Shown piece by piece: positions 27,342 through 55,000 of a stretch of DNA of 57,325 nucleotides. Under the pieces are notes generated by a model. The model worked only from the letters and a program-made list of their open reading frames with translations, was not told the origin of the DNA and made no database searches. The stretch lies in the IMG/VR virus record IMGVR_UViG_3300031867_000069; one strand, 5' to 3'. The position numbers and the translations under genes were made by a program. Within the stretch, counting starts at the first letter, position 1; every line of letters starts with the position of its first letter. This DNA comes from a virus.

Positions 27342-27353
27342 GGTTTATATTTT

Positions 27354-27551: not shown

Positions 27552-28770
27552 AGATTTTTTATATAGCTATCAAAAAAAGGCTGTTGATCAAATGAAAAAC
27601 GGCTGCATACTTAATGGCGGGGTCGGTTCTGGTAAATCTAGGACTGGCCTTTACTATTATTTCAAAGAACAAGGTGGATCTATTGATTCTAAATATATAG
27701 AGATGAAGAATCCTAAAGATCTTTATATCATCACGACTGCTATGAAAAGAGATAGCTTAGAATGGGAAGGCGAATTGGCTAATTTCTTATTGACTACTAA
27801 TAAGGACGAAGCCATTTACCATAATCATACTGTTGTAATCGATAGTTGGAATAATATTAAGAAGTATGCTGATATTAAGAATTCATTCTTTATATTTGAC
27901 GAGGATAGGGTCACAGGCAAAGGTGTTTGGGTTAAATCTTTTCTTAAGATAGCAAAATCTAATGATTGGATTATATTATCAGCAACCCCAGGAGACACAT
28001 GGGAACAATATATTCCTGTGTTTATTGCGAACGGATTTTACAAAAACAAAACGGAATTCCTTAGGGAACACGTTATCTTTTGTAGATATACAAAATTCCC
28101 TAAAATCGACAGATATATTAATACAGGAAGACTCATTCGTCTACGTAATAAGATATTAGTCGATATGGATTTTACCAGAAATACTATAGCACATCATGAA
28201 GATGTGTATGTCAGGTATGATATTTCGAAGTACAAGGATGCCATCAGAACTAGATGGAATCCGTTTAAAGATGAACCAATACGACAAGCATCGGATCTAT
28301 GCTATGTTTTAAGAAGAATTGTAAACAGCGATGAGTCTAGACAAATTGCTTTGCTTGAGTTATTTGAAAAACATCCTAGAATGATTGTTTTCTATAACTT
28401 TGATTACGAGCTTGATATTTTAAAAGGATTGTATTATGGAGAAAACGTTGATGTTGCGGAGTGGAATGGACATGCTCATAATCCTATACCAACTTCTAAA
28501 CAATGGGTATATCTTGTGCAATATACTGCCGGATGCGAAGGATGGAATTGCATCAAAACAGACACTATTGTCTTCTACTCTCAAAACTATTCCTATAAGG
28601 TTATGGCGCAAGCCTCCGGGCGTATTGACCGTCTCAATACTCCGTTCAGGGATTTATATTATTACCATATTAAATCTAGAAGTGGAATTGACTTGGCCAT
28701 CAGTAAAGCATTATCAAACAAAAAGAAGTTTAATGAAAGAAGATGGTATGATAAATTTGCAAATGATTGA
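27544..28770 (+). CDS. SF2 (DEAD/SNF2-like) helicase (408 aa)
   Basis: Motif I is LNGGVGSGKSRT, motif II is FFIFDEDRV and motif III is ILSATPG. ATG 27544 overlaps the upstream stop by 8 nt. Confidence 0.75.
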   Translation: MSKDFLYSYQKKAVDQMKNGCILNGGVGSGKSRTGLYYYFKEQGGSIDSKYIEMKNPKDLYIITTAMKRDSLEWEGELANFLLTTNKDEAIYHNHTVVIDSWNNIKKYADIKNSFFIFDEDRVTGKGVWVKSFLKIAKSNDWIILSATPGDTWEQYIPVFIANGFYKNKTEFLREHVIFCRYTKFPKIDRYINTGRLIRLRNKILVDMDFTRNTIAHHEDVYVRYDISKYKDAIRTRWNPFKDEPIRQASDLCYVLRRIVNSDESRQIALLELFEKHPRMIVFYNFDYELDILKGLYYGENVDVAEWNGHAHNPIPTSKQWVYLVQYTAGCEGWNCIKTDTIVFYSQNYSYKVMAQASGRIDRLNTPFRDLYYYHIKSRSGIDLAISKALSNKKKFNERRWYDKFAND

Positions 28771-28774
28771 TGAA

Positions 28775-28803
28775 TTCGCGTAAAACACATGTTCCTTTAT
28801 GGA
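28775..28803 (+). promoter_or_regulatory. Promoter-like motif TTCGCG-N17-TATGGA
   Basis: ttcgcgtaaaacacatgttcctttatgga. Confidence 0.6.
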
Positions 28804-28845
28804 ATCATACTGATTCAGAATTATATTTTAAAGGAGGACGAATCT

Positions 28846-29139
28846 ATGAAATTCGTTGAAAAAACTAAAAACTTTGTAAAGAAACATAAGAACATTTTTA
28901 TCATGGGTGCTGCTACTGGTGGAGCAATACTAATCGGTTGTTTAGCTTATGACTTCGGGACTAAGCGTCAATTAAAAGCGCTTGGCTTGGATTCTAAGAA
29001 AGAAATTTGGATTGGAAAAAGCAAAATCAACAAAGCCGAATGGTTAAAAGATGGAACTATGTCGGATGAAGCTAGAGAGTTTTTAAATTCAATGAAACAA
29101 GAAGAGATCGATACAACATTCTTTTTACAAAATAAATAA
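28846..29139 (+). CDS. Small membrane protein (97 aa)
   Basis: SD AAAGGAGG lies before ATG 28846. TM segment IFIMGAATGGAILIGCLAY. Confidence 0.65.
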   Translation: MKFVEKTKNFVKKHKNIFIMGAATGGAILIGCLAYDFGTKRQLKALGLDSKKEIWIGKSKINKAEWLKDGTMSDEAREFLNSMKQEEIDTTFFLQNK

Positions 29140-29160
29140 AATGAATCGATTCCAAATTTA

Positions 29161-29192
29161 GGAGATCTTAAACAAGGTCTCCTATTATTTTT
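29161..29192 (+). terminator. Cassette-type terminator (GGAGATCTT-AAAC-AAGGTCTCC)
   Basis: 9-bp stem with the same loop context (TTAAACAAGG) as the 14.7-15.7 kb terminators. Confidence 0.7.
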
Positions 29193-29213
29193 GTTAAACA
29201 AAGGAGAATGACA

Positions 29214-29447
29214 ATGAATGAAATTGTTATCAAAAGTAAGGATTCGGAAAATAAATGGAGATTAGCCGAGATCATACGAAATCAAGTCTTAGACTCTGAT
29301 TACAGCAGCAAAGGAATCATATTAGATTTCAGCGAAATTCGTAGAGTAATTATATTCTACGATGATAGTGAAACCGCATTAAATATGGTTGAGCATATTC
29401 GTGATTACATGAACGGTCCAGGTGCTGAATTTGGACGAGTTGTTTAG
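29214..29447 (+). CDS. Hypothetical protein (77 aa)
   Basis: SD AAGGAG lies 7 nt before ATG 29214. Confidence 0.6.
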   Translation: MNEIVIKSKDSENKWRLAEIIRNQVLDSDYSSKGIILDFSEIRRVIIFYDDSETALNMVEHIRDYMNGPGAEFGRVV

Positions 29448-29674
29448 TGGAGGCCTATTTGAAAAGAATAAGAAAAAGGTATTATTGTTTATATTTGGTT
29501 GTTGCTAATCTATCTGGTGTTTATAGTGATTACACATATTTGTTAAAGACCAGATTTAAGATCACTGCAATGATTAAAAGGTATATTTATGCAAAAGTTT
29601 TATCCAATGCTTTGCGAAGTGATCCTAAGTATAAACAGAAGTCATACATATCTATTGTAGAGGATTATTTATAA
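29447..29674 (+). CDS. Hypothetical basic protein (75 aa), GTG start
   Basis: The GTG overlaps the upstream TAG by 1 nt. The SD is weak. Confidence 0.3.
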   Translation: MEAYLKRIRKRYYCLYLVVANLSGVYSDYTYLLKTRFKITAMIKRYIYAKVLSNALRSDPKYKQKSYISIVEDYL

Positions 29675-29713
29675 ATTCGGAAGATAGAAAGTTCGTTGGT
29701 CAATAAAATGTAA

Positions 29714-29742
29714 TTCGCGAGAATAACATGTTCCTTTATGAA
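29714..29742 (+). promoter_or_regulatory. Promoter-like motif TTCGCG-N17-TATGAA
   Basis: ttcgcgagaataacatgttcctttatgaa. Confidence 0.6.
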
Positions 29743-29764
29743 AACATATAAAGGAGGATTTATT

Positions 29765-29998
29765 ATGTATACGAAAAAAGTGACTGTTGAATATTACGAT
29801 CGAAAACATGGTTTGGTTCGTAAGATTGAGAGAACTTACCAGTATGACGATAAAGCTTCTTATATCAACTCTTTGAGAAAAAAAGTTGAAAAAAGAAGAT
29901 TTATGGAAATTTGTAAGTATGATCAATCTCTACCACACTCAAGTATCGATGATATTATGGATGCTTACAAAGAATACATAGAAGTTCTAAAGTTTTAA
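29765..29998 (+). CDS. Hypothetical protein (77 aa)
   Basis: SD AAAGGAGG lies before ATG 29765 (track ATG 29738 is inside the motif). Confidence 0.6.
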   Translation: MYTKKVTVEYYDRKHGLVRKIERTYQYDDKASYINSLRKKVEKRRFMEICKYDQSLPHSSIDDIMDAYKEYIEVLKF

Positions 29999-30003
29999 AG
30001 TTT

Positions 30004-30041
30004 AAGGTGTCTGAAACATGGCACCTTATTCTTTTATTTTT
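30004..30041 (+). terminator. Rho-independent terminator
   Basis: 8-bp stem (aaggtgtc / ggcacctt), then attcttttattttt. Confidence 0.65.
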
Positions 30042-30056
30042 GAAAGGAGAATTTAC

Positions 30057-30932
30057 ATGAGCAAAAAATATGAATTCACGGGAGAAACTAAAACGATGCA
30101 GGATGGCAATATTTTGCATAGAATCATAGCTTGTAAAACATTCGGAAATGTAAAATCCGGAGAACTCGGCGGATGGATCGAAAACGAAAATAATTTGAGT
30201 CATGAAGGAAATGCTTGGGTTTCTGAAAATGCTAGTGTTTATGGAAATGCTAAGGTTTCTGGAAATGCTGAGATTTCTGGAGATGCTAGAGTTTATGGTG
30301 ATGCTGAGATTTTTGGAGATGCTGAGATTTCTGGAGATTCTTGGGTTTCTGGAAATGCTAAGGTTTCTGGAAATGCTGAGATTTCTGGTGATTCTTGGGT
30401 TTTTGGAAATGCTGAGATTTCTGGAAATGCTGAGATTTCTGGAAATGCTAGTGTTTATGGAGATTCTGGGGTTTATGGTGATGCTAAGATTTCTGGAGAT
30501 GCTAAGATTTCTGGAGATGCTGAGATTTCTGGTGATTCTTGGGTTTATGGTGATGCTAGGGTTTATGGTTATTCTTGGGTTTATGGAAATGCTAGGGTTT
30601 ATGGTGATGCTAGGGTTTCTGGAAATGCTATAGTTTATGGAGATGCTAGAGTTTTTGGAAACGCTTGGGTTTTTGGAAATGCTGAGATTTCTGGAAATGC
30701 TGAGATTTCTGGAGATGCTGATTATGCAACAATCAAAGGATTTGGAACTAACTTTAGAAATACTACTTTCTTTAAGTGTTCCGACGGATCTATAAAGGTC
30801 AATTGCGGTTGTTTCTATGGAACTTTAAAAGAGTTTAGAAAACAGGTAAATAAAACTAGATCTGGAAAAATCAGAAAAGAATATCTTATGATTGCAGATC
30901 TAATGGAAATGCATTTTTCAAATAAAACTTAG
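30057..30932 (+). CDS. Hexapeptide-repeat (left-handed beta-helix type) protein of unknown function (291 aa)
   Basis: SD AAAGGAGAA lies before ATG 30057. There are 28 consecutive G-[ND]-[AS]-x-[VI]-x hexads. The C-terminal domain contains a GCFYGTLKEF motif. Confidence 0.75.
   Translation: MSKKYEFTGETKTMQDGNILHRIIACKTFGNVKSGELGGWIENENNLSHEGNAWVSENASVYGNAKVSGNAEISGDARVYGDAEIFGDAEISGDSWVSGNAKVSGNAEISGDSWVFGNAEISGNAEISGNASVYGDSGVYGDAKISGDAKISGDAEISGDSWVYGDARVYGYSWVYGNARVYGDARVSGNAIVYGDARVFGNAWVFGNAEISGNAEISGDADYATIKGFGTNFRNTTFFKCSDGSIKVNCGCFYGTLKEFRKQVNKTRSGKIRKEYLMIADLMEMHFSNKT
30207..30719 (+). repeat. 18-bp tandem repeat array (about 28.5 units, consensus ggaaatgctgagatttct)
   Basis: Read directly from the sequence. 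It encodes the hexapeptide repeats. Confidence 0.9.
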
Positions 30933-30948
30933 TGAAAGGAGCAAAACT

Positions 30949-31119
30949 ATGAACAAACAAATGGATTATGTACTAAGGAGATATGATAAAAAGTGCCCAA
31001 TTTGCGGAAAGACTTTTGCATATTATCCGTCGGAGCATGTATACAAGCGTGGCAAAGGACGAGAAACTTTATATTTTTGTTCTTGGACTTGCATGAGAAA
31101 ATACGATAAAATCGTATGA
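30949..31119 (+). CDS. Small zinc-ribbon-like protein (56 aa), below the ORF-track cutoff
   Basis: SD AAAGGAG. Contains CPICG...CSWTC. Confidence 0.5.
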   Translation: MNKQMDYVLRRYDKKCPICGKTFAYYPSEHVYKRGKGRETLYFCSWTCMRKYDKIV

Positions 31120-31138
31120 TATTGAAAGGAGAATAAAA

Positions 31139-31303
31139 ATGGCTAATAAACCTAAAAAAGCTTGCCGAGGATGCTTATATTGCACTCCATATTACGGAAA
31201 TAAGAATAAGTTCGGAAAGAGAACCATTTCTAAATATTGGTGTATTAAGAAAAGTACTACGTGTTCTGATCCGAAAGAGTGTTCATTTAGAAAGGAGAAA
31301 TAA
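31139..31303 (+). CDS. Small Cys-rich basic protein (54 aa), below the ORF-track cutoff
   Basis: SD AAAGGAGAA. Contains CRGCLYC...C....TTC....C. Confidence 0.5.
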   Translation: MANKPKKACRGCLYCTPYYGNKNKFGKRTISKYWCIKKSTTCSDPKECSFRKEK

Positions 31304-31305
31304 AA

Positions 31306-31561
31306 ATGATTAAAATTGAAAACGCGGAAGTTATGGGTTGGGAGGCTGCTATTCGTGGAATGCGAAATCCAATGAATTCTTGGGATAGGAGTGATAGCGA
31401 ACGAAAATACGAATCATGGCACGATATGTCTGGAGGAGAGTTTACCATTGGCCCAAATGATCATGACTTGATGATGCGGTTGGCAGCGGGTGGACCGGTT
31501 CATGCGAAGTATCGTAGGATGATTACGGTATATGTTGATATTACTGCTCCTCTATATTGGT
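31306..31561 (+). CDS. ThyX-like (flavin-dependent thymidylate synthase fold) protein, exon 1
   Basis: The N-terminal 85 aa end in ...VDITAPLYW, which corresponds to ThyX ...[10 protein letters not shown]. The apparent TAG stop is the first bases of the intron. The exon ends on U31561. Confidence 0.7.
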
Positions 31562-31607
31562 AGTTCTTTCTGCCAATGAAACACTTTTCCTAGTTATCGC
31601 TAGGGGT

Positions 31608-31636
31608 CACGCGTAAATAACATGCTCCTTTACGAA
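31608..31636 (+). promoter_or_regulatory. Promoter-like motif CACGCG-N17-TACGAA (inside the intron)
   Basis: A variant copy. Its CACGC can pair with GCGUG at 32471-75, closing the insertion. Confidence 0.45.
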
Positions 31637-31650
31637 AGGAGGAATTAAGT

Positions 31651-31839
31651 ATGATATTTAGAAGAAACAAACTTACAGTTGACGAAATTGAAGCATATGT
31701 ACAAAATCATTTAGATCTATATAATAGCCAAATAAAAATATTAGAAGATGATAATTATACATGTGAATGTTTAAAAGCACAAAGAGTAACTTGTAAAGAG
31801 ATACTTAGATTCATTAAAGTTAGAAAGGCTCAGCAATAA
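31651..31839 (+). CDS. Intron-nested small protein (62 aa)
   Basis: SD AAAGGAGG. The stop lies inside the terminator stem. Confidence 0.55.
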   Translation: MIFRRNKLTVDEIEAYVQNHLDLYNSQIKILEDDNYTCECLKAQRVTCKEILRFIKVRKAQQ

Positions 31840-31859
31840 CGCTGGGTCTTTTCTCTTTT
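31827..31859 (+). terminator. Rho-independent terminator (copy 1 of a 35-nt exact repeat)
   Basis: Stem ggctcagc / gctgggtc, then ttttctctttt. 31826-31860 is identical to 32428-32462. Confidence 0.7.
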
Positions 31860-31879
31860 ATGAAAGGAAGGTGATATTT

Positions 31880-32149
31880 ATGACCAATACCGAAAAACAA
31901 ATAGAAAATATGGGGTATGAAATTCGTGTTAGTGATATGCTTTGCAATTATGTTGTTTATGAGAACAAAAAAGAAGATCAAGAAATAATCTTGGAATGGG
32001 ATGATGAAGATCAATATTGTATGTTGTTTTCACAAACAATATCGAGAGAAAAGGATTGGCTCGGACATACACGACAAATGCCTCAAGCATTAACTATTCG
32101 TGAATTGGAAATATTTACAGCTAGACTTAAAGAATTGAGAGAGGCCTAA
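31880..32149 (+). CDS. Intron-nested small protein (89 aa)
   Basis: TATGAAAGGAAGG lies before ATG 31880. Confidence 0.55.
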   Translation: MTNTEKQIENMGYEIRVSDMLCNYVVYENKKEDQEIILEWDDEDQYCMLFSQTISREKDWLGHTRQMPQALTIRELEIFTARLKELREA

Positions 32150-32180
32150 TTAATGGTCTCTTTCTCTTTTTTATTTTTTT
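32140..32180 (+). terminator. Rho-independent terminator
   Basis: Stem agaggcc / ggtctct, then a long T-run. Confidence 0.7.
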
Positions 32181-32191
32181 GAAATCTAAAA

Positions 32192-32220
32192 TTCGCGAAA
32201 TACGCACTTCCTTTTATGAA
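32192..32220 (+). promoter_or_regulatory. Promoter-like motif TTCGCG-N17-TATGAA (inside the intron)
   Basis: ttcgcgaaatacgcacttccttttatgaa, abutting SD AGGAG. Confidence 0.55.
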
Positions 32221-32234
32221 AGGAGTGAATTATT

Positions 32235-32402
32235 ATGTTACAATCACACGAAGTTAAAAATTATTTACATTCATTAAATGCGGTAAAATATCATTATGAT
32301 ACTGATGAATTTAACAGACGAGTTAATTTCGTTTGTAAAATATGTAGTTATCATGGATATTTGTCGTATGGAAAGATAAGAGAAATATTCGAAAATTGTT
32401 AA
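32235..32402 (+). CDS. Intron-nested small protein (55 aa), below the ORF-track cutoff
   Basis: Product MLQSHEVKNYLHSLNAVKYHYDTDEFNRRVNFVCKICSYHGYLSYGKIREIFENC. Confidence 0.5.
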   Translation: MLQSHEVKNYLHSLNAVKYHYDTDEFNRRVNFVCKICSYHGYLSYGKIREIFENC

Positions 32403-35916: not shown

Positions 35917-35941
35917 ATTTTTGAGGATGTTTTTAGTGTTT

Positions 35942-36129
35942 ATGCCCACTTTTGTGGCCAAAAGCCCACTTTATGCCCACTTTTGGCCAATAAAAATGGC
36001 CACAAGAATTGTCCAATTTGGGTCATTTTTGGTCGTTTTTGGGGTAAAAAAGGGCATTTTTGGGGTATTTTGTGGTGTTTTTTCACATTTTTTGAGAATT
36101 TTTAAGGTTTGTGGCCAAAAGCCCACTTT
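35942..36129. repeat. Short direct repeats (iteron-like): ATGCCCACTTTTG x2 and TTTGTGGCCAAAAGCCCACTTT x2, plus multiple TGGCCA
   Basis: The 13-mer is at 35942 and 35973. The 22-mer is at 35951 and 36108. TGGCCA occurs about 7 times between 35955 and 36249. Confidence 0.85.
36021..36110. repeat. Nine helically phased T4-6 tracts (10-nt period), predicted bent DNA
   Basis: ggtcattttt ggtcgttttt ggggtaaaaa agggcatttt tggggtattt tgtggtgttt tttcacattt tttgagaatt tttaaggttt. Confidence 0.8.
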
Positions 36130-36196
36130 TATTTTAATTTATTTAAGAAAAAAGTATATATATTTAAAAAGAATTGACAAAAAAAAACGGGTTTTT

Positions 36197-36302
36197 GGCC
36201 ACAGGCATATTTTAGGGTCGAATAAGGTTGAAAATGTGCATTTGGCCACAGGCATATTTTAGGGTCGAATAAGGTTGAAAATGTGCATTTGGCTATATTT
36301 TT
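36197..36302. repeat. Perfect 47-bp tandem repeat, 2 full units plus a partial third
   Basis: ggccacaggcatattttagggtcgaataaggttgaaaatgtgcattt occurs at 36197-36243 and 36244-36290, followed by ggctatattttt. Confidence 0.9.
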
Positions 36303-37253: not shown

Positions 37254-40088
37254 ATGAACAATATCATAAAAGATATGGATGAACATGTGCTAATGCATTA
37301 CGGAATGCCTAAACGTTCTGGACGATATCCTTGGGGAAGTGGTGATAATCCATATCAGCGTACAGGCGATTTTATGGGTAGAGTTGACGAGCTAAGAAAA
37401 CAGAATTTTACTTATACTGATGAAAAAGGAAAAGTTTGGACAGGCGATACTGCTATTGCCAAATCTATGGGTTTGTCAACAACTCAATTTAGAACCGAAT
37501 ATTCTATTGCTAAAAACGAACGTAGACTCTATCAAGTAAATACTGCTAAAGCGTTGCAGAAAGATGGACTCGGTGCTACAGAAATCGGTAGAAAAATGGG
37601 TATACCAGAATCATCAGTTAGATCCTTATTGAATGCAAAATCCGAAACAAAAATGAATCAGGCTAAAGAAACAGCTAAATTCATAAAAGAGCAGATTGAT
37701 AAAAAAGGAATGATTGATGTTGGTACTGGTGTTGAAAGAGAACTAAACATATCTAAGGAAAAACTTAATCAGGCCTTATATTTACTCGAAAGAGAAGGCT
37801 ATCCTATATATAAAGGCGGCATTCCCCAAGTAACAAACATAGGTAATCAAACAAATCAAAAGATTATTTGTAAACCTGGTACAGAACATAAAGAAATTTA
37901 TGATTTTGACAAGGTTCATGCTCTTAATGAGGATAACTATATTTCTAGAGATGACGGTAAAACTTTCGAAAAGAAATTCCATTATCCAGAAAGTATGGAT
38001 TCAAAACGTCTTATGATTAGATACAAAGAGGACGGCGGCATCGATAAAGATGGTGTTGCAGAAATTAGACCAGGTGTTGACGATCTTTCACTTGGCGAAT
38101 CTCGATATTCTCAGGTTCGTATAATGGTTGATGGTAAAAAATACATAAAAGGTATGGCTGTATATGGCGATCCTAAAGATTTTCCTAAAGGTGTTGACGT
38201 TATATTTAACACTAACAAATCAAAGTCTGTATCTAAACTAGATGTTCTTAAAGATATTAAGAGCGATCCAGATAATCCATTTGGTTCTTTAATTAAAGAC
38301 GCTACACAAGGCGGTCAATATTGGTATACGGATTCTAAGACCGGAAAGAAGAAGCTTGGACTTATTAATAAGACAAGAGAAGAAGGCGATTGGGATGATT
38401 GGAAAGATGCTCTGCCTTCACAGTTCTTAGCTAAGCAGCCTATACAAATGATTAAGAAACAATTAAAGTTAGCAGTTGCTGATAAGGAAGCAGAATATGC
38501 TGATATTATGTCTATTAATAATCCTACTATTAAGAAATATTATCTTAATAAGTTTGCGGATGAATGTGATTCGACGGCTGTACATTTAAAAGCAGCCGCA
38601 TTACCAGGACAAAAGTATCACGTTATTATTCCTAATAATACGCTTAAAGAGAATGAAGTGTATGCGCCGGGCTATGCTTCAGGCACAAAGCTTGCTTTAA
38701 TAAGATATCCACATGGTGGAACATTTGAGATTCCTATATGTACAGTAAACAATAAGAATGCATTAGGTAAAAAACTTATAGGTACAACTCCTATAGATGC
38801 TGTATGTATTAATTCTAGAGTTGCTGAAAGATTATCAGGAGCGGATTTTGATGGCGATACGGTTATGTGCATTCCAACCCATGATCGTCAAGGAAAAGTT
38901 AAGATTACTTCTACTCCTCCTTTGAAAGGTCTAGAAGGTTTTGACCCAAAGATGGCCTATCCAGAACGTCCAGGTATGCAGTATATGAAAAATCCTAAGA
39001 CTGGAAGTGATAGCACTCCAGTGCAAATGGGAATGATTTCGAATCTTATAACCGATATGACTTTACTTGGCGCTACCTCTGATGAATTGGCTGCTGCCGT
39101 ACGTCACAGTATGGTAGTTATTGATGCTGGTAAGCACAAGCTGGACTATAAGCAGAGCGAGATAGATAACAACATAGCCGCTCTAAAGAAAAAGTATCAA
39201 GTGGGTGGCGCTTCTACTTTAATGTCTAGGGCTAAAGGTGAGTATGATGTACCCAAAAGGCAGGGTAATCCCCGTGTCAATTTAAAGGGCAAAACATATT
39301 ATGACCCTACCCGTCCCGAGGGAGCCCTAGTATATAAGACGGCAGACGACGCCAAATGGATACAAACAAAAGTCAATAAACGTACTGGAGAAGTAAAAAA
39401 AGTTGAGAGGATTCGTACTCAGAAGAGTACCAATATGGCAGAGACGGATGACGCATATACCCTAGTGTCTAAATTTAACACCCCTAAGGAGAGAGCCTAT
39501 GCCGACTATGCCAATAAAATGAAATCAATGGCTAACCAGGCCCGTATAGAAGCATCTAATTCGGGCAAAATAGCCTATTCAAGATTGGCAAAAGCAGAAT
39601 ATCAAAAAGAAGTAGATTCTTTGAATGCAAAATTAAACAAAGCTTTACTTAATTCTCCTAGAGAACGTCAAGCTCAACGTATGTCTAACGCTGAAATGAA
39701 TATAAAAAAGAGAGCCTATTATGATGAAACGGGCGCAAAGATGAAAACTAAGGATATAAAGAAAGCCAGTCAGCAAGCAATATCAAAGTATCGTGATGAA
39801 GTAGGCTCTGTATCTAGAAGAAACCGTTCTATTACTATAGATGATAGAGAATGGGAAGCTATTCAAAAGGGTGCAATAAGCGAAAGCGTGCTTAATAAGA
39901 TACTGAATAATAGTGATCCTGACAAACTAAGAGAAAGAGCAACACCTAAAACTTCTAAAGGTTTAAACACTGCTAAAGTAAACAGAATCAAAGCTTTGTC
40001 TGCTTCTAATTACACATTAGAACAAATCGCTAACAAACTTGGTATTTCAACTTCAACAGTTGCTAAGTATTTGAAAGGAGGAAATTAA
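37254..40088 (+). CDS. YonO / RdRP-like two-barrel single-subunit RNA polymerase candidate with flanking HTH domains (944 aa)
   Basis: The core motifs are ALIRYPHGGTFEIP (R484), then LSGADFDGDTVMCIPTHD (D531-D535, nt 38844-38858), then GMISNLITD...AAAVRHSMVVIDAGKHKLDYK. The HTH segments are GATEIGRKMGIPESSVRSLL near the N-terminus and YTLEQIANKLGISTSTVAKYLKGG at the C-terminus. Confidence 0.6.
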   Translation: MNNIIKDMDEHVLMHYGMPKRSGRYPWGSGDNPYQRTGDFMGRVDELRKQNFTYTDEKGKVWTGDTAIAKSMGLSTTQFRTEYSIAKNERRLYQVNTAKALQKDGLGATEIGRKMGIPESSVRSLLNAKSETKMNQAKETAKFIKEQIDKKGMIDVGTGVERELNISKEKLNQALYLLEREGYPIYKGGIPQVTNIGNQTNQKIICKPGTEHKEIYDFDKVHALNEDNYISRDDGKTFEKKFHYPESMDSKRLMIRYKEDGGIDKDGVAEIRPGVDDLSLGESRYSQVRIMVDGKKYIKGMAVYGDPKDFPKGVDVIFNTNKSKSVSKLDVLKDIKSDPDNPFGSLIKDATQGGQYWYTDSKTGKKKLGLINKTREEGDWDDWKDALPSQFLAKQPIQMIKKQLKLAVADKEAEYADIMSINNPTIKKYYLNKFADECDSTAVHLKAAALPGQKYHVIIPNNTLKENEVYAPGYASGTKLALIRYPHGGTFEIPICTVNNKNALGKKLIGTTPIDAVCINSRVAERLSGADFDGDTVMCIPTHDRQGKVKITSTPPLKGLEGFDPKMAYPERPGMQYMKNPKTGSDSTPVQMGMISNLITDMTLLGATSDELAAAVRHSMVVIDAGKHKLDYKQSEIDNNIAALKKKYQVGGASTLMSRAKGEYDVPKRQGNPRVNLKGKTYYDPTRPEGALVYKTADDAKWIQTKVNKRTGEVKKVERIRTQKSTNMAETDDAYTLVSKFNTPKERAYADYANKMKSMANQARIEASNSGKIAYSRLAKAEYQKEVDSLNAKLNKALLNSPRERQAQRMSNAEMNIKKRAYYDETGAKMKTKDIKKASQQAISKYRDEVGSVSRRNRSITIDDREWEAIQKGAISESVLNKILNNSDPDKLRERATPKTSKGLNTAKVNRIKALSASNYTLEQIANKLGISTSTVAKYLKGGN

Positions 40089-40091
40089 CAA

Positions 40092-40373
40092 TTGAATAAT
40101 GATTATGATGAAAACTATTCTATTGAAAAGAATTACATGTTAACAACAGTTGACAATCCTTTTGATCCTTTTGAGCAATTTGTTTCTTGGTTCATGTTCG
40201 ACACTGAAAAAGGTTATAATACTTGTTCTACTTTAGCAAGGATAGCGAATATTTCAGATGATATGTCTCAAAAAGAAGTAATCGATGAAACGAATAGAGC
40301 TATCGATGAAATAATAAAGTATGACTTTTTAGACATATATAAAAAAGTAGAACGAGATAATATCAATTCATAA
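40092..40373 (+). CDS. Hypothetical conserved phage protein (93 aa), TTG start
   Basis: SD AAAGGAGG lies 11 nt before TTG 40092. Contains TVDNPFDPFEQFVSWFMFDTEKGYNTCSTLARIA. Confidence 0.5.
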   Translation: MNNDYDENYSIEKNYMLTTVDNPFDPFEQFVSWFMFDTEKGYNTCSTLARIANISDDMSQKEVIDETNRAIDEIIKYDFLDIYKKVERDNINS

Positions 40374-40398
40374 CCATATCCATATTATTTTATACATA

Positions 40399-40462
40399 GG
40401 GGGGGTGTCGAAAATTACACCCCCTCCCCACATCGCCGCCCTCCTCGAAAATTCCCCGGGGG
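40399..40462. other. GC-rich island with hairpin and palindrome (candidate cos / packaging site)
   Basis: A G7 run is followed by the stem GGGGGTGT (40401-08) / ACACCCCC (40417-24). TCGAAAATT occurs twice (40408 and 40445). CCCCGGGG lies at 40454-61. The island is unique within an otherwise AT-rich genome. Confidence 0.45.
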
Positions 40463-40490
40463 ATATTTTTGAAAAAACTTTTTGTTGGAG

Positions 40491-40623
40491 CTAGTGTTCC
40501 AAGGAGCGTATGAGTTTTATATTTTTCTAGTCCACAATCATTACGTTGCATTCTTTAAATGAAATATATTCTCCTTTCAAATATTAAGTTCTTATATGGC
40601 TCATACGTTCCTTAGAATACTAG
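40491..40623. repeat. 24-nt imperfect inverted repeat (21/24) separated by 85 nt
   Basis: ctagtgttccaaggagcgtatgag (40491-40514) pairs with ctcatacgttccttagaatactag (40600-40623). As + strand RNA, two of the mismatches become G-U pairs and one is a C-A mismatch. Confidence 0.8.
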
Positions 40624-40695
40624 CCTAAAAGTATACACAAAGCGATAAAAACATATTTGTTTGTGTGTCTAAATAGCAGAAAGGAGATAAAAAGC

Positions 40696-41037
40696 ATGAA
40701 AAAAGTTGGTAAAAAAGACGATAAAGATTCCTCTTCTAATAAAATCAGACCTGCTTTAACGCCCGAAGCCAGAGAAAATCAGATGATATCTTTGGCTGTA
40801 GACTTAGCAGAGAAGCAATTACAAGAAGGAACTGCGTCTTCTCAAGTAATAACGCATTTTCTAAAGCTGGGATCCACAAAGCAACAATTAGAAAAACAGA
40901 AACTAGTAGAAGAGAATAAGTTATTACGTGCTAAAACAGAAAATCTTCAATCAGTGGGTAGAATAGAAGAGTTATATGCGGAAGCTATTAATGCTATGAG
41001 AAATTATTCAGGTCAAGGAGATTCGGATGAATATTAG
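40696..41037 (+). CDS. Putative terminase small subunit (113 aa)
   Basis: SD AAAGGAGA lies before ATG 40696. It is the first gene of the packaging module, with a basic N-terminus and a coiled coil. Called by position only. Confidence 0.4.
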   Translation: MKKVGKKDDKDSSSNKIRPALTPEARENQMISLAVDLAEKQLQEGTASSQVITHFLKLGSTKQQLEKQKLVEENKLLRAKTENLQSVGRIEELYAEAINAMRNYSGQGDSDEY

Positions 41038-41446
41038 AACATATTCAGAATTAATTACTTTGCCAACATTTGAAGAACGTTATCGTTATTTGAAGTTAAA
41101 TGGCAATGTTGGAGAAGAGACATTCGGATTCGATAGATATTTGAATCAAATGTTTTACAGATCTGCTAAATGGCGGTCTATTAGAGATTATGTAATTATT
41201 CGCGATGGCGGATTTGATCTCGCTATCAAAGACAGAGAGATCAGAGGTAAAATACTAGTTCATCATATGAATCCAATATCTAAAGCTGATATTTTAAATG
41301 AATCTGAGTTTCTTTTAAATCCTGAGTATTTAATAAGCACTGTGAAAAATACTCACGACGCTATTCATTACGGAGATGAAAGTTTATTAATCACAAATCC
41401 TGTTACACGTAGAAGAAATGATATGTGTCCATGGAAGAAAGACTAA
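41027..41446 (+). CDS. HNH endonuclease (139 aa)
   Basis: Contains ILVHHMNPISKADILN...NPEYLISTVKNTHDAIHYG (HH..N..N..H). It is terminase-proximal. Confidence 0.75.
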   Translation: MNIRTYSELITLPTFEERYRYLKLNGNVGEETFGFDRYLNQMFYRSAKWRSIRDYVIIRDGGFDLAIKDREIRGKILVHHMNPISKADILNESEFLLNPEYLISTVKNTHDAIHYGDESLLITNPVTRRRNDMCPWKKD

Positions 41447-41461
41447 AGGAGGAAATTAGAG

Positions 41462-41770
41462 ATGGCAAAACATACTAATTACAGCAAACCAAAAAAAATC
41501 GATAAGGTAGAAGAAACAACAGTTAATGTTGAAGAAGTGCTACCGGTAGACGTTGAAACACCAGAAGTTCTTGTTGGATTTGTAAGCGGTTGCAAGAAAC
41601 TTAATGTTCGTTCGAATCCTTGGATTGATGCGGAAGTGCTAACTGTAATTGACGAGAACGATGAAGTGAGTGTTATTCGCTACGAAAGTGAACCAGCGGA
41701 TTTCTATCAAGTAAGAACAAAGAATGATGTCGAAGGTTATTGCATGAAAAAGTACATAACACTTAGTTAA
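41462..41770 (+). CDS. SH3-like domain protein (102 aa)
   Basis: The pattern LNVRSNPWIDAEVLTVIDENDEVSVI...FYQVRTKNDVEGYCMKKYI is typical of bacterial SH3 domains. Confidence 0.45.
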   Translation: MAKHTNYSKPKKIDKVEETTVNVEEVLPVDVETPEVLVGFVSGCKKLNVRSNPWIDAEVLTVIDENDEVSVIRYESEPADFYQVRTKNDVEGYCMKKYITLS

Positions 41771-41772
41771 GG

Positions 41773-42123
41773 ATGATGATCATGGATAGTGTATTAACAT
41801 CTATTAAAAAGCTGCTCGGTATTACCGAAGAGTATAAGCAGTTCGATCAGGATTTGATTATACATATTAACTCGGTGTTGATGGGATTGACACAAATCGG
41901 AGTTGGTCCTTCCGAAGGCATGAGAATCCAAGATGATTCTACTACTTGGAATGATTTATTATCAAATATTTCTAATCTTGAAGCTGTTAAAACATATGTG
42001 TATTTGAAAGTCAAAATGGTTTTTGATCCGCCTACAAGCTCTTCGGTGATGGATGCCATGAATAGATCAATAAACGAGTATGAATGGCGTTTAAACATAA
42101 ATGCCGATTCTCAAAAGGAGTGA
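41773..42123 (+). CDS. Hypothetical protein, possibly head-tail-connector-like (116 aa)
   Basis: Three in-frame ATGs (41773, 41776, 41782). Only weak resemblance to the N-terminus of gp6-like connectors. Confidence 0.45.
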   Translation: MMIMDSVLTSIKKLLGITEEYKQFDQDLIIHINSVLMGLTQIGVGPSEGMRIQDDSTTWNDLLSNISNLEAVKTYVYLKVKMVFDPPTSSSVMDAMNRSINEYEWRLNINADSQKE

Positions 42124-42359: not shown

Positions 42360-42374
42360 AGGACGGTGAGATTA

Positions 42375-43046
42375 ATGAATGATGAACTTTATCATCACGG
42401 TATCAAAGGTATGAAATGGGGCGTTCGTAGATATCAGAATAAAGACGGTAGTTTGACTCCTAGAGGAAAAAAGAAATATGGAACTAGAGAGAATTTTGAA
42501 AGGCACTTGGCCTCTAAAAAATTTAAAAAGAGTTCTCATAAACTTTCTGGTATAGAGAAGAAAAAGCCTATAAAGTCGGCTAAGGATATGACCGATGATG
42601 AATTAAAAAGTAGGATCAATCGTCTTCAAATGGAAAGGCAATATCTTGATTTAAATAAACAGATTTCTTCTTTAACTCCTAAAAAAGTGTCGAAAGGAGA
42701 ACAGTTCATCAAAGCAATCGGTAAAGACGTTATAGCTCCAGTTGCCAAAAATATTGGCAAACAATATTTGGAAAAAGCATTAAAGAAAAATCTAGGATTG
42801 GATATAAAAGATACTTTGGAAGGTCTAGAAAAAGAAGCAAAGAAATTAAGACTAAAAAAAGAAATAAATGATCTAAAGAATCCTAAAAAAGACTATAAAG
42901 ATGAATTTGTTAAGAATTGGAACAAACATAAAAGATGGAAAAAAGCAGTTGAAGAATATGAAAATGAAGCTGCTGATGATTTTGTAAATAGTAATGCTGA
43001 TTCCGGAAAGCAATATGTAGAAACAGCTTTGGCTATACGTAAATAG
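42375..43046 (+). CDS. Lys-rich protein with N-terminal LYHHGIKGMKWGVRR motif (223 aa)
   Basis: Shares a 53-bp exact DNA segment with 44839..45414. It sits immediately upstream of terL. Confidence 0.65.
   Translation: MNDELYHHGIKGMKWGVRRYQNKDGSLTPRGKKKYGTRENFERHLASKKFKKSSHKLSGIEKKKPIKSAKDMTDDELKSRINRLQMERQYLDLNKQISSLTPKKVSKGEQFIKAIGKDVIAPVAKNIGKQYLEKALKKNLGLDIKDTLEGLEKEAKKLRLKKEINDLKNPKKDYKDEFVKNWNKHKRWKKAVEEYENEAADDFVNSNADSGKQYVETALAIRK
42379..42431 (+). repeat. 53-bp exact direct repeat, copy 1
   Basis: atgatgaactttatcatcacggtatcaaaggtatgaaatggggcgttcgtaga, identical to 44867-44919. Confidence 0.95.
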
Positions 43047-43060: not shown

Positions 43061-44824
43061 ATGGCATTATCGAATGTTGCCACCCCTAAATATTACGGTA
43101 AATTTCGAGATGCTGTAATTAGAGGTGAAATACCTGTATGCGAAGAAATTTCAATGGAAATGAATAGAGTAGATGCTCTTATTGATAATCCAGGAGTTTG
43201 GTATGACAATCAAGCTATAGACGGATTTATTAGATATTGTGAGAATGAACTAACTCTAACTGATGGCGAAGATTTGCATTTACTTGACACATTTAAACTT
43301 TGGGCTGAACAAATCTTTGGCTGGTATTATTTTGTAGATAGAAGTATTTATGTCCCTTCAGAAGATGGTCATGGCGGGCACTATGAAACTCGAACTATTA
43401 AAAAACGTTTAATTACAAAATTTTATTTAATAGTAGCTAGAGGTGCGGCCAAGTCTATGTTCGCATCATGTATTCAAAATTATTTTCTAAATGTCGATCC
43501 AGCGACAACGCATCAAGTGACAACAGCGCCAACAATGGCGCAGGCAGAAGAAGTTATGTCACCAATACGAACTGCCATCACTAGATCTAGAGGACCACTT
43601 TATAAATTTTTAACAGAAGGTTCCTTACAGAATACCACAGGTTCCAAGGCTAATCGTGTTAAATTGGCTAGTACTAAAAAAGGAATTCAGAATTTTCTGA
43701 CAGGTTCTTTATTAGAAGTAAGGCCTATGTCTATCGATAAACTACAAGGTTTACGAGTTAAGGTAGCGACAGTTGATGAATGGTTGTCTGGTGATATAAG
43801 AGAAGACGTCATAGGTGCGTTGGAACAAGGTGCTGCTAAAGAACAAGGCGGTGGTAAGAATGACGACTATCTAATATTAGCTATTAGTTCCGAAGGTACT
43901 GTTCGTAACGGAAGTGGCGATACAATCAAAATGGAATTAATGAGTATACTTAAAGGTGAATACAATGCTCCTCATACCGCTATTTGGTGGTACAAACTTG
44001 ATTCAATAGATGAAGTATCAGATCCATCCAAATGGTTGAAAGCCAATCCAAACCTTGGAAAAACAGTTTCCTACGAAACATATCAGCTTGACGTTGAAAG
44101 AGCAGAAAAGAATCCAGCTGCAAGAAACGATATCCTGGCAAAACGTTTTGGTTTACCTATGGAAGGTTATACATACTATTTTACATATGAAGAAACACTA
44201 CCACATAGAAGAAGAGACTATTGGGGTATGCCTTGTGCATTAGGAGGAGATTTATCTCAAGGTGACGACTTTTGTGCGTTTACATTTTTGTTTCCATTAT
44301 CGAGTGGGGCTTTTGGAGTAAAAACTCGAAATTATATAACTGAACTTACATTATCGAAATTACCAGGTGCCATGCGAATGAAATATGAAGAATTCATCAA
44401 AGAAGGAAGTTTAATAATCATGCCTGGCACTGTTCTAGATATGATGGAAGTTTATGAAGATCTAGATAATCATATTTCTAGAGTTGAGTATGATGTTCGT
44501 TGCTTTGGATTCGATCCATATAATGCGAGAGAGTTTGTCGAAAGATGGGAACGAGAAAACGGACCATTCGGCATAGAAAAAGTAATCCAGGGTTCCAAAA
44601 CAGAATCTGTTCCGCTAGGAGAGTTAAAGAAACTTGCTGAAGAAAGAATGCTTTTGTTTGATGAAGAACTGATGACATTTGCGATGGGTAACTGTATCAC
44701 ATTAGAGGATACTAATGGTAATCGTAAATTATATAAGAAAAGATATGAACAAAAAATCGATGCAGTTGCGGCTATGATGGATGCATATGTTGCATTTAAG
44801 CTTAACCGAGAAGCTTTCGAATAA
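43061..44824 (+). CDS. terL: Terminase large subunit (587 aa)
   Basis: Walker A-like LIVARGAAKS, Walker B KVATVDEW, and nuclease C-terminus QKIDAVAAMMDAYVAF. Terminase_1/COG4626-like. Confidence 0.9.
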   Translation: MALSNVATPKYYGKFRDAVIRGEIPVCEEISMEMNRVDALIDNPGVWYDNQAIDGFIRYCENELTLTDGEDLHLLDTFKLWAEQIFGWYYFVDRSIYVPSEDGHGGHYETRTIKKRLITKFYLIVARGAAKSMFASCIQNYFLNVDPATTHQVTTAPTMAQAEEVMSPIRTAITRSRGPLYKFLTEGSLQNTTGSKANRVKLASTKKGIQNFLTGSLLEVRPMSIDKLQGLRVKVATVDEWLSGDIREDVIGALEQGAAKEQGGGKNDDYLILAISSEGTVRNGSGDTIKMELMSILKGEYNAPHTAIWWYKLDSIDEVSDPSKWLKANPNLGKTVSYETYQLDVERAEKNPAARNDILAKRFGLPMEGYTYYFTYEETLPHRRRDYWGMPCALGGDLSQGDDFCAFTFLFPLSSGAFGVKTRNYITELTLSKLPGAMRMKYEEFIKEGSLIIMPGTVLDMMEVYEDLDNHISRVEYDVRCFGFDPYNAREFVERWERENGPFGIEKVIQGSKTESVPLGELKKLAEERMLLFDEELMTFAMGNCITLEDTNGNRKLYKKRYEQKIDAVAAMMDAYVAFKLNREAFE

Positions 44825-44838: not shown

Positions 44839-45414
44839 ATGACTAATTACATTATAAAAACAAAGGATGATGAACTTTATCATCACGGTATCAAAGGTAT
44901 GAAATGGGGCGTTCGTAGACAACAGAAAAAACAGGCAAAGAAAGATTTTGCAAACATGCCAAGTAAGAAGAAAGGCCCAGTTGATATTGGTAATTCCGCA
45001 GCACGAAGTTATTTTAAGTCGCAAAATCTTATAAGAAAGGCTGATAAAACTAGAAGTTTTGCCAAGTATAGGAAATTAAATAAAAAAGCCCATCGTTTGC
45101 AAAAAATAGCAGATAGAAAAACAGGTCAATTAAACGAGGCGCAAGTTAAAGCCGGTCGCTATAGAATCGCTAGAAATAGAAACTATAGAAGAACAGCTTT
45201 ATCCGCTGTTATAGGAACAGCAGCTGGAGTAGCTGCTATGGGACTTGGTGCAGCAGCATTGGGCGTTCCTATTGCTGGTGCGGCATACATTACAAGTAGA
45301 TATGCTAGTGGTGGTAGACGATATCGAAGAGAACAGATTAGTTATAAGAAGTTTGCAACAAAAGAAAGCAAGCCGATAAAGAAAAATAAATCTAAATCTA
45401 AATCTAGTAAATAA
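44839..45414 (+). CDS. Basic protein with N-terminal LYHHGIKGMKWGVRR motif and C-terminal Gly/Ala-rich hydrophobic segment (191 aa)
   Basis: SD AAGGAGG. Hydrophobic segment ALSAVIGTAAGVAAMGLGAAALGVPIAGAAYI. It lies between terL and the portal gene. Confidence 0.65.
   Translation: MTNYIIKTKDDELYHHGIKGMKWGVRRQQKKQAKKDFANMPSKKKGPVDIGNSAARSYFKSQNLIRKADKTRSFAKYRKLNKKAHRLQKIADRKTGQLNEAQVKAGRYRIARNRNYRRTALSAVIGTAAGVAAMGLGAAALGVPIAGAAYITSRYASGGRRYRREQISYKKFATKESKPIKKNKSKSKSSK
44867..44919 (+). repeat. 53-bp exact direct repeat, copy 2
   Basis: Identical to 42379-42431. Confidence 0.95.
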
Positions 45415-52051: not shown

Positions 52052-55000
52052 GCAAAACAATAGACGAAAGAGTTGTTGAAATGCGATTCGACAATAAACA
52101 ATTTGAATCAAATGTTAATCAAACGATGTCGACTCTAGATAAATTTAAACAAAAGTTGAATCTGTCTGGAGCATCCAAAGGGCTCGAAGAAGTTGGTCGT
52201 AGTGCAAAGAACGTTGATGTTTCTTCTATTAGCTCTGGTTTAGACTCCGTTAAAGCCAAATTTTCAGCATTACAAGTTATGGGCGTTACCGCCTTAGCTA
52301 ATATAACTAATTCGGCAGTAAATGCTGGTAAAAGACTTGTATCGGCTTTTACCATCGATCCTGTTAAATCTGGCTTCGAAGAATATGAAACTCAGATAAA
52401 TTCTGTCCAAACCATTTTGGCCAATACCCAAAAAGAAGGAACAAAAATAGGCGATGTAAATAAAGCTCTCGATGAGTTGAATCTATATGCTGATAAAACT
52501 ATCTATAATTTTACTGAAATGACTAGAAACATAGGTACATTTACAGCTGCCGGGGTTAAGTTGAAAACATCAGTATCATCAATACAAGGTATAGCTAACC
52601 TTGCCGCGGTATCAGGTTCGAACGCTCAGCAAGCTTCTACTGCAATGTATCAGCTTTCTCAGGCTCTTGCTGCCGGTAAAGTTCAGCTTATGGACTGGAA
52701 ATCAGTAGAAAATGCTGGTATGGGCGGTCAAGTTTTTCAAGATGCTTTAAAGAAAACCGCTAAAGAACATGGAGTAGCAGTAGATGAGATCATAAAGAAA
52801 AGTGGATCTTTTAGAGAAAGTTTGCAAAAAGGCTGGATAACATCAAAAATACTTACCGAAACTCTTGGCAAAATGACAAAATCCGGTGCTGCCGAATACT
52901 TGGCAAAATTAACCGGAGTAACTCAAAAAGAAATTACAGCTGCTCAAAAAGCGGTAGAAACCAATAAAGATGGATCTGCTTCTTACGACAAGTTAGCTGA
53001 AAAAATGGCTAAATCCGGAAAGATAACTAAAAAGGAAGCTCTAGAAACTTTAAAAATGGCCGATACTGCTGAAGACGCAGCTACCAAAGTTAAGACTTTT
53101 TCACAGTTAATGGACACCTTAAAGGAAGCTGCTCAATCCGGTTGGTCACAAACTTGGAGAATATTAGTAGGCGACTTTGAAGAAGCAAAAGATTTATTTA
53201 CTCCTCTTAATGATTTCTTTAGTGGAATTATTAATAACATATCCAATGCTAGAAATGCAATGCTTAAAAGCGCTTTAGGTAAAAGTTTTAAAAAACTAGG
53301 TGAAGAAATTACAGCTATAACGAAGCATATAAAGAAAACCGCGGATGGCGTTAAGGAAGCTTCTAAAAGTTTAGAAAAATATGGTGAGATTGTAAACCAA
53401 ATAATTAGAGGCGACTGGGGTAACGGACAAGAAAGATTTGATAAGCTTACAAAGGCCGGTTATGATTGGGCTCATGCGCAGAATTTGGTAAATGAGAAAT
53501 TAGGTGATTCTACTCGTTATGAAACCAAATATGCAGAAGCTAAGAATAAATCGTCAAAGGTGCAAGGAGATTCCGCAAAGTCACAATCAAAAAATTTGGA
53601 AGCTCTTACTAAAATGTCTGATGCTGAATTGAAGCATATTGGTCTTAATGATAAGGAAATAAAATCTCTTAGACAATTAAAAAAAGAAGCTGATAAAGTT
53701 GGAATGTCAGTTTCTAATTTTAGTGCTAACATAGACAATATCAATGGTAGATGGCTTATATTTGACTCTTTTAAGACAATAGGTAAAAGTCTCGTTAAAG
53801 TGTTGCATTCAGTGAAAGATGCATGGGACGAAGTATTTCATGGAACTACCGATAACAATAAAATTGCTAATCAAAGAGCAAAAAGTTTGTATAATCTTAT
53901 AGCTGCTTTCCATAAGTTATCGATGAAACTAAAAGTTAACGATGAGACGGCCGATAAGATAAAGCGTACATTTAAAGGTTTATTTGCTATCATAAAACTA
54001 ATCACATCGATAACTGGTGGCACTTTTAAGACTGTTTTTACAGTAGCTCAAAATGTATTGGGAGCATTTAATCTTGATATTTTGGATGTTACAGCTTCTG
54101 TTGGTGATGTCCTTGTTAAATTTAGCGATTGGGTTTCGCAAAATAGTCTATTAACAAAAGCTATTAAGTTTTTAACCCCTTATATTACAATTGCCGTAAA
54201 AGCTGTTAAAGACTGGATAAATGCTATTATTGAATCCGGTGTAGCTCAAAAAGTATTTGATGGTTTTGTTAGTTTTTTAAAATCGGCATTCAGTAGTATA
54301 AAAGGGTGGATAATAGCAATTAAAGACTCCGAAATTGCACAAAACATTATTTCTGGTTTGGTCAACGGACTTAAAACCGGAGCTAGTTCAGCATGGGATG
54401 CAATCGTTTGGTTAGGCACTACTTTGCTTGAAAAGATAAAAGCCATTCTAGGTATTCATTCTCCATCTACCGAATTCTTTGAAATTGGTGGAAATATTAT
54501 TTCAGGTTTATTTAATGGGTTGAAAAATGGAGCATCATGGATTTACGATTTCATAACTGATCTCGGCTCAAAAATAATAAACATAGTCAAAAATTTAGAT
54601 ATCGGAACCGTTATAGCTGGCATATTAGCTGGTGGTATGTTTGTTGGTATTAAAAAATCTTTTGATTTTATAGAACTTATTTCCGAACCATTGCATGGAT
54701 TGAATAAAATATTTGATTCCGTTGCCGGAGTAATAAAAGCATCACAAAAAGGTATTGCTAAGTCATTAAAAGGTTTAGCCAAAACTTTTAAAGCATTTGC
54801 GTTTAAAATGCGTATGGATGCTATAAAAGATTTAGTGATATCAGTAACAATTTTAATAGCAGCTTTGATTGTTTTAGCGCATCAAGATACTGATAAACTG
54901 TGGGATGCAGTAGGTGTACTAGGCGCAGTCGTTGGCATGTTAGCCGCTTTGGTAGTCATCACTGAAGTATGTACTAAAAGCTCAACTAAAATAGATGCAG

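Follow-up and report, generated by a model that had tools for sequence, protein, structure and literature searches.

The window, by which we mean the whole stretch of 57,325 nt analysed here, carries at 37254–40088, on the plus strand, a gene for a YonO-like RNA polymerase (phrog_4291, 1197 bits). The product is of the single-chain two-barrel type, with an ADFDGD motif and a C-terminal sigma-region-4-like HTH. Its homologues in the GenBank records examined are mostly annotated as 'helix-turn-helix DNA-binding domain protein' or 'hypothetical protein', and a few as 'RNA-dependent RNA polymerase'. The polymerase gene is followed on the same strand by a conserved 93-aa gene (40092–40373, phrog_4303), and then by a 322-nt gap that extends to the start of the next gene at 40696. 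A GC-rich island, 40399–40462, lies within this gap.

The first gene beyond the gap (40696–41037, plus strand) encodes a 113-aa protein of phrog_4259 (function unknown, E 1.6e-46), for which there are at least 8,000 database relatives. Its stop codon is overlapped by an HNH endonuclease gene (41027–41446, plus strand; phrog_4321, 'HNH endonuclease', E 8.4e-61), which also gives weaker matches to HNH phrogs and is 49–53% identical to the annotated HNH genes of phages HotFries, Fazel and KeaneyLin; a Pfam search with this ORF gave no match. Genes for an SH3-domain protein and a connector protein, a small ORF and a gene for a DUF7211 protein separate it from the large terminase gene, terL (43061–44824, plus strand). 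TerL matches Pfam TerL_nuclease PF20441 (E 1.2e-36) and TerL_ATPase PF03354 (Terminase_1; E 3.3e-5, 24.1 bits with a cut-off of 23.7), and a portal gene comes next. A preliminary description of this DNA had placed an HNH gene next to a terminase of the kind found in HK97-like phages. The HNH gene is present and TerL is of the Terminase_1/HK97 type, but the two are not adjacent, the HNH gene lying four genes upstream of terL. The DUF7211 motif ELYHHGIKGMKWGVRR is encoded by the 93% identical 70-nt starts of the two genes that flank terL (42374–42443 and 44862–44931), and a degenerate version of this start opens the RNA polymerase gene.

A small terminase was sought in Pfam, PHROGs and NCBIfam, by PDB sequence search, and with an AlphaFold model compared by Foldseek with the PDB and BFVD. 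The 113-aa protein shows no similarity in Pfam, NCBIfam, PDB sequences, PDB folds or named viral folds, and no recognizable small terminase resembling HK97 gp1 was detected in the sequence and fold searches of this candidate. Its predicted structure consists of a helix, a turn and a long helix (pLDDT 78). The 113-aa protein is a positional candidate for the small terminase, encoded immediately after the site discussed below and overlapping the HNH gene.

The sequence of the island is exactly as quoted in the preliminary description, and no other 64 nt of the window are as rich in GC: the island reaches 65.6% against a mean of 34.9% (SD 6.1%), and the second-ranked stretch 59.4%. The island opens with the only G7 run in the window (40399–40405), and the CCCCGGGG palindrome, also reported previously, occurs once, at 40454. 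GGGGGTGT (40401–40408) and ACACCCCC (40417–40424) are perfect complements, giving an 8-bp inverted repeat around an A-rich spacer. TCGAAAATT is found at 40408 and 40445 within the island, and at two unrelated places elsewhere in the window.

The stem and the repeated TCGAAAATT had both been put forward as features of the island. Both are present, the stem being perfect in the window, but neither is a conserved feature in relatives. The G5T/AC5 portion of the stem and the spacer AAAA are kept, but the inner TGT/ACA pairs are not, and are usually mismatched (TCT against ACA). When the island is folded as single-stranded DNA, its stability is not above that of shuffled sequences (z = −0.98). Because folding is no better than in shuffles and the inner pairs are neither conserved nor covarying, the hairpin itself is not significant, and it was rejected as a structural signal. 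The TCGAAAATT repeat is partly kept in gut relatives, as (T/G)TCT followed by an A-rich run, and is absent from actinophages; it was dropped as a defining feature. It is the conserved sequence blocks, and not the hairpin as such, that carry the significance of the island. The opinion that the island is not a normal terminator agrees with the sequence. Directly 3' of the stem is TCCCCACATCG, which contains no T-run, and no intrinsic-terminator-like site was found in 39800–41100; a terminator reading was rejected on these grounds.

A megablast search of 39000–42000 against GenBank phages gave no match, and relatives were reached through protein searches only. Full-length homologues of the RNA polymerase, at 37–58% identity, are present in 250 phage records; the hosts represented are Streptomyces, Arthrobacter, Gordonia, Rhodococcus, Curtobacterium, Lactococcus (1706-like phages) and Faecalibacterium, and there are homologues in human-gut contigs. 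The phage is a member of a known superfamily, which includes Streptomyces cluster BI, Gordonia, Arthrobacter, Lactococcus 1706-like and gut phages. A supercluster of these phages, and their shared ancestry at the protein level, have been described (bioRxiv 10.1101/842583). Along its whole length, TerL shares 78% amino acid identity with its counterpart in Streptomyces phage HotFries. For a terminase this is an unusually strong cross-phylum conservation, the two genomes being about 27 points apart in GC content.

The gene order around the island is also conserved. In HotFries, Fazel (Gordonia), KeaneyLin (Arthrobacter) and P078 (Lactococcus), the order is YonO-like RNA polymerase, small gene, genome ends, phrog_4259 gene, HNH gene and TerL gene, with the phrog_4259 gene directly upstream of the HNH gene in each. 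All four are deposited as linear genomes, and the ends have been published for HotFries and P078. The polymerase and small genes are the last two genes of each linear record, while the phrog_4259/HNH pair lies near the record start. When the right and left ends of these records are joined, they align without gaps to 40389–40483 of the window. The right and left ends are GGGGGGGGGGGTCTCGCGATTCAAGCCCCCCTTCTGCATCGCCGCCCT and CCTATATTTTCCCCCGCGGGAAC in HotFries and GGGGGGAGGGGGTATCGCAACCCGTACCCCCCCTCTGCATCGCCGCCCT and CCTCAAAATATCCCCGGGGGAGATTTTTG in Fazel; the corresponding sequences in the window, split as predicted, are CATAGGGGGGGTGTCGAAAATTACACCCCCTCCCCACATCGCCGCCCT and CCTCGAAAATTCCCCGGGGGATATTTTTG. 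The HotFries record starts with CCTATATTTT, that of Fazel with CCTCAAAATA and that of KeaneyLin with CCCCAAAAAA. The start of terL is 2,618 nt from the predicted left end in the window and 2,653 nt from the left end in HotFries.

The alignment predicts a right duplex end at 40433, an overhang at 40434–40442 and a left end at 40443. The predicted 9-nt 3' cohesive overhang, CGCCGCCCT on the plus strand, would form a cosN core, and is identical to the 9-nt 3' overhang published for the BI2 Streptomyces phages (PMC6256688; PMC11385150). The window contains it only once, against 0.02 chance matches expected, and it forms the final 9 nt of the HotFries and Fazel records. It sits inside a 15-mer, CATCGCCGCCCTCCT, which is identical in the window, HotFries and Fazel. 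For the lactococcal phages of the P078 group, a 3' overhang 5'-CGCCCCAGTC has been established by Sanger sequencing, and the overhang of phage 1706 is 5'-GCCCTGTCT (PMC4110766).

The region 40399–40478 is very probably the cos site of this phage, at which two nicks 9 nt apart would generate a linear genome with 9-nt 3' overhangs; the phage would be cut at the same bonds as its relatives. The left boundary block of the core is the G-run at 40399–40405. The inverted repeat at 40401–40424 probably acts as duplex DNA, in the manner of a cosQ-like left flank. It overlaps a C-rich block, ACCCCCTCCCCACAT (40419–40433), in which ACCCCC and the final (C)AT are conserved and the last base is the predicted right duplex end. 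Beyond the overhang, the predicted left end begins with the 11 bases CCTCGAAAATT (40443–40453), at the position where contigs of relatives start. These are followed by the palindromic CCCCGGGGG block and an A/T tract, ATATTTTTGAAAAAAC (together 40454–40478), which may be cosB-like. The window sequence is continuous across the site and gives no direct sign of an end, as is expected of an assembly from annealed ends, circular forms or concatemers.

Contig ends in relatives provide evidence of physical ends at this position. The left end was surveyed in 80 IMG/VR loci in which TerL is 81–89% identical to that of the window, and the element is present about 2–3 kb upstream of terL in nearly all of those that reach that far. 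Eleven independent contigs start at the homologue of 40443: seven from IMG/VR, three from near-identical phages and one in which the start follows an adaptor remnant. Examples are L011 (CCTCAAAAATTCCCC), L021 (CCTAAAAAATTCCCCGGGGG) and L041 (CTTTAAAATTTCCCC). Four further IMG/VR contigs start 3–9 nt inside this position. Three contigs whose first protein after the site is 94–98% identical to that of the window start at CCTCAAAAATTCCCC (L211, ERZ27275909; L220, ERZ28615112; L222, ERR1302636), and one more of this class starts one base in. In L079, from IMG/VR, an Illumina adaptor remnant, TCCGATCT, is followed directly by the base homologous to 40443. Such remnants (L079, positions 1–8; a Nextera remnant, ...AGATGTGTATAAGAGACAG, at positions 1–35 of L065) mark physical DNA ends here, yet they are contaminants in public records. 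For the right end, contigs were scanned with a pattern describing the left-hand part of the site. Six IMG/VR contigs (L140, L155, L156, L129, L141 and L147) finish exactly at ...AT, the homologue of 40433. Breaks in assembly at G/C homopolymers could conceivably produce such contig ends. Against this, each side shows one fixed bond, the two lying 9 nt apart, and one contig carries the adaptor remnant. The preliminary proposal of a cos site at the island is supported by homology to mapped ends, the conserved gene order, an exact match to a published overhang, the contig ends of relatives, and a Terminase_1/HK97-type TerL with an HNH gene.

The 9 nt between the left-end and right-end classes are missing from both, which is consistent with a 3' overhang removed in library end-repair. 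In established library-preparation chemistry, end-repair removes 3' overhangs, whereas a 5' overhang is filled in and would produce a 9-nt overlap between the two classes. Contig ends alone do not give the polarity of an overhang, and genome ends at this position might be of another type: blunt, with a short direct terminal repeat, or with a 5' overhang as in lambda. This is very unlikely, since experimental determinations in relatives, read-based as well as by Sanger sequencing (the latter for the P078 group), give 3' polarity and a length of 9–10 nt for the BI2 phages and the P078 group, and since the contig ends leave a gap where a 5' overhang predicts an overlap.

It is similarly improbable that the island is a transcriptional signal only, such as a terminator, an attenuator or a late promoter or operator, with no role in packaging. 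Its location at the boundary of two gene modules would suit such a signal, as would the presence of an inverted repeat and a palindrome. Against it stand the lack of a T-run or terminator-like site and the behaviour of the stem, both described above; the absence from the island of the repeated promoter-like motif of this genome (TTCGCG...TATTATG); and the ends that fall inside the island: the records of four related phages terminate there (with published ends for HotFries and the P078 group), and so do 14 IMG/VR contigs and three contigs of near-identical phages. A regulatory role alongside cos is conceivable.

A pac site for headful packaging, at which one imprecise cut near the island would give permuted and redundant ends, would fit the position directly upstream of the packaging genes equally well. 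It is, however, less likely still than the two preceding explanations, given relatives with published fixed 3' overhangs, contigs of relatives that start and end on single bonds 9 nt apart, and a Terminase_1/HK97-type TerL accompanied by an HNH gene.

About 90 related loci carry the cos element; they come from many samples and from cultured phages of four host genera, and 76 distinct sequences were aligned without gaps. Block-by-block conservation across these loci leaves almost no probability for an assembly artefact or a chance GC-rich stretch without function, although G/C homopolymers are difficult for some sequencing chemistries. A run of 5–11 G occupies the position of 40399–40405 in 76/76 distinct aligned relatives, HotFries, Fazel, KeaneyLin and P078 included, with a column conservation of about 0.8–0.9. 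The other conserved blocks are the spacer AAAA, ACCCCC (40419–40424), (C)ATCGC (40431–40436), T/C-T (40442–40445), CYCCGGRGG (40454–40462) and a T-tract (about 40466–40470), where the slash marks a cut. The window has every block of the core, which can be written as G-run, spacer, ACCCCC, ...CAT/CGC-N5-T/C(C/T)T, W7-8, CYCCGGRGG and T-tract. Within the overhang, the outer CGC and T are fixed in relatives and the centre is variable; CGCGGCGGT is found 37 times, CGCGCCGGT 22 times, CGCCGGCCT eight times and CGCCGCCCT three times, in addition to rarer variants.

Few columns of the alignment are better conserved than those of CYCCGGRGG and the (A)TTTTT after it. The CCCCGGGGG block with its whole A/T tract (ATATTTTTGAAAAAAC) extends from +12 to +36 relative to the nick, and CCCCGGGGG with ATATTTTT from +12 to +28. 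The HK97 small terminase binds at +15 to +29, at a G plus an A-tract (PMC11331095). As the best conserved right-hand block, in a position like that of the HK97 site, CCCCGGGGG with ATATTTTT is a candidate small-terminase recognition site.

The closest likeness among cultured phages is to the BI2 set of Scapunavirus phages (HotFries, Scap1, Moozy, RavenPuff, GoblinVoyage and Doxi13), with Fazel and KeaneyLin. The overhang of the BI2 phages and Fazel is the one predicted for the window, CGCCGCCCT, and that of KeaneyLin is CGCCGGCCT. All have the same CATCGC...T/CCT flanks as the window, the same layout of G-run, spacer and C-run to the left and CCCCGGGGG with a T-tract to the right, and the same flanking genes, with TerL proteins 76–78% identical. 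The BI2-type phages differ in infecting hosts of another phylum and in a GC content of about 61%, compared with 34% in the window. Unlike the window, HotFries lacks a long hairpin and carries, on the right-hand side, several more blocks of the TTTTCCCC type, and in Fazel additional genes occupying about 4.6 kb separate cos from the phrog_4259/HNH pair.

The Lactococcus 1706-like phages (1706 and the Nevevirus phages P078, P092, P118 and P162) are low-GC Firmicutes phages of the same superfamily. They share with the window the CTGCAT/CGC... left boundary, a CCCCGTTGGG block that lies 11 nt in from the left end, and a downstream long hairpin. They differ in their 10-nt overhang, in a weaker G-run and C-run (AAGGGGAGGG ... 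CCACCTCC) and in proteins that are only 37–45% identical.

The resemblance to HK97 (TerS gp1, TerL gp2, HNH gp74) lies in a Terminase_1-type TerL with an HNH helper, a putative one in the window, and in a short 3' overhang, of 10 nt in HK97 against the 9 nt predicted here; the position of the putative recognition block is a further likeness. There is no sequence similarity between the two sites, no HK97 small-terminase-like protein was detected in the window, and the HNH gene is downstream of cos, whereas that of HK97 is at the right genome end. With the lambda cos (cosQ-cosN-cosB), the site shares a tripartite plan, in which a nicking site is placed between a left element and a right-hand terminase-binding region, putative here, by the first packaging gene. 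Lambda has 12-nt 5' overhangs, a terminase of a different family, IHF sites and no HNH partner. A lambda-type cos was rejected for the window, as the overhangs of relatives are 3' and of 9–10 nt, and the contig ends leave a 9-nt gap with no overlap.

A scheme for packaging can be proposed from these comparisons. Replication would yield concatemers, on which terminase would recognize the left flank (G-run, ACCCCC and CAT) and the right flank (CYCCGGRGG and the A/T tract). Two nicks 9 nt apart would be made, on the plus strand after 40442 and on the minus strand between 40433 and 40434, presumably by TerL together with the HNH protein, as proposed for HK97. By analogy with HK97, TerL may cut one strand and the HNH protein the other, or TerL may cut both and be stimulated by HNH (PMC11331095). 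The mature genome would be linear with 9-nt 3' overhangs, with 5'-CGCCGCCCT on the plus strand at the right end. The left end, 40443, would enter the capsid first, packaging running rightwards through the packaging genes and the head genes. Once injected, the genome would circularize by annealing of its overhangs.

Outside the cos core, a conserved long hairpin with an outer stem of about 33 bp is present at 40486–40627 (plus strand), in the leader of the first gene of the packaging module. It starts 24 nt after the CCCCGGGGG block and has a folding z-score of −6.5. Widely diverged relatives all have a stem of 25–39 bp at the same place. The apical part includes a conserved TTCTCCTTTC (40569–40578), which is complementary to the Shine–Dalgarno sequence. 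In an alignment of the arms from 26 representatives, compensatory double changes occur in 31/31 consensus pairs. The proportion of paired cells is 89.5%, compared with 68.7% in column shuffles and 34–46% when the arms are slid by 1–3 columns, and the covariation score is 0.71 against 0.30; the arms were excised via the predicted helix of each sequence, which favours pairing. The plus-strand version is the more stable in 63/72 relatives, and there are 324 G-U pairs compared with 24 A-C mismatches. This asymmetry points to a plus-strand transcript. A search of the hairpin against Rfam 15 gave nothing at gathering thresholds, the sub-threshold matches being miRNA-precursor models of generic long hairpins, and whole-window Rfam and tRNA scans were empty.

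The hairpin is present in Lactococcus P078 and absent from HotFries, and in KeaneyLin it is upstream of the phrog_4259 homologue rather than next to cos. This distribution and the KeaneyLin placement indicate that it belongs to the leader of the phrog_4259 gene and not to cos. A cruciform or other DNA-level reading is disfavoured by the same placement and by the G-U against A-C asymmetry, although the hairpin could alternatively act as DNA in terminase recognition. The possibility of a small ORF on the minus strand, behind the conserved GAAAGGAGAA (complement of TTCTCCTTTC), was dropped, since the peptides downstream of it in relatives have 3–25 aa and, by eye, are not conserved.

The hairpin is probably an RNA. 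It could be an mRNA leader element, serving as an RNase III substrate or a translational control element, with UUCUCCUUUC as an anti-Shine–Dalgarno-like apical motif in an operon presumably transcribed by the phage YonO-like RNA polymerase. In SPbeta, the late operon transcribed by YonO also begins with an unannotated non-coding RNA (PMC5467207). That the hairpin represents an undescribed structured RNA leader of the packaging/late operon in a cross-phylum superfamily is a tentative suggestion, with a chance somewhat short of even.

Several other features of the window were recorded. Many early and middle genes are immediately preceded by a repeated motif, TTCGCGnnnnTTACAnnnnnTATTATGAAAGGAGG, with at least 14 sites in 14130–32237 (for example at 14130, 14436, 15132, 16991, 18026, 26351, 29714 and 32192), and GAGSYCTTWAACAAGGRCTC hairpins with T-runs are found between these sites. 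The motif may be a phage-specific promoter or regulatory site, as its spacing is unlike that of a sigma-70 promoter. The region 35921–36300 is gene-free, with many TGGCCACA and TGGCCAAAAGCCCAC repeats and a 47-nt tandem duplication at 36184–36277, and is an iteron-like candidate for the replication origin. ORF 30018–30932 encodes a 6-aa repeat protein; within it, 30144–30809 is built of about 37 tandem 18-nt units (as 24 overlapping copies of 252 nt, each offset by 18 nt), with a local GC skew of 0.41. Small minus-strand ORFs follow the head genes at 52100–56700, including three paralogous membrane-like genes (55119–55787), while nearly all else in the window is on the plus strand.

The cos family to which this site is assigned is already characterized in cultured relatives, with soil and dairy phages among them. 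The finding is thus a correct one with value for annotation, if an ordinary one, and only the neighbouring hairpin may be novel. The prediction would place the natural ends of this uncultured gut-type phage genome, and its proper start coordinate, to the nucleotide. The predicted cos-type packaging would mean no generalized transduction by headful overshoot. The consensus G-run ... ACCCCC ... CAT/CGC-N5-T/CYT ... CYCCGGRGG could be used to orient and terminate assemblies of an abundant phage group. A 15-nt cos core and a 78% identical terminase have been retained between phages of low-GC Firmicutes and those of high-GC Actinobacteria, and the retained core adds a cis-acting site to the published protein-level evidence of shared ancestry (bioRxiv 10.1101/842583).
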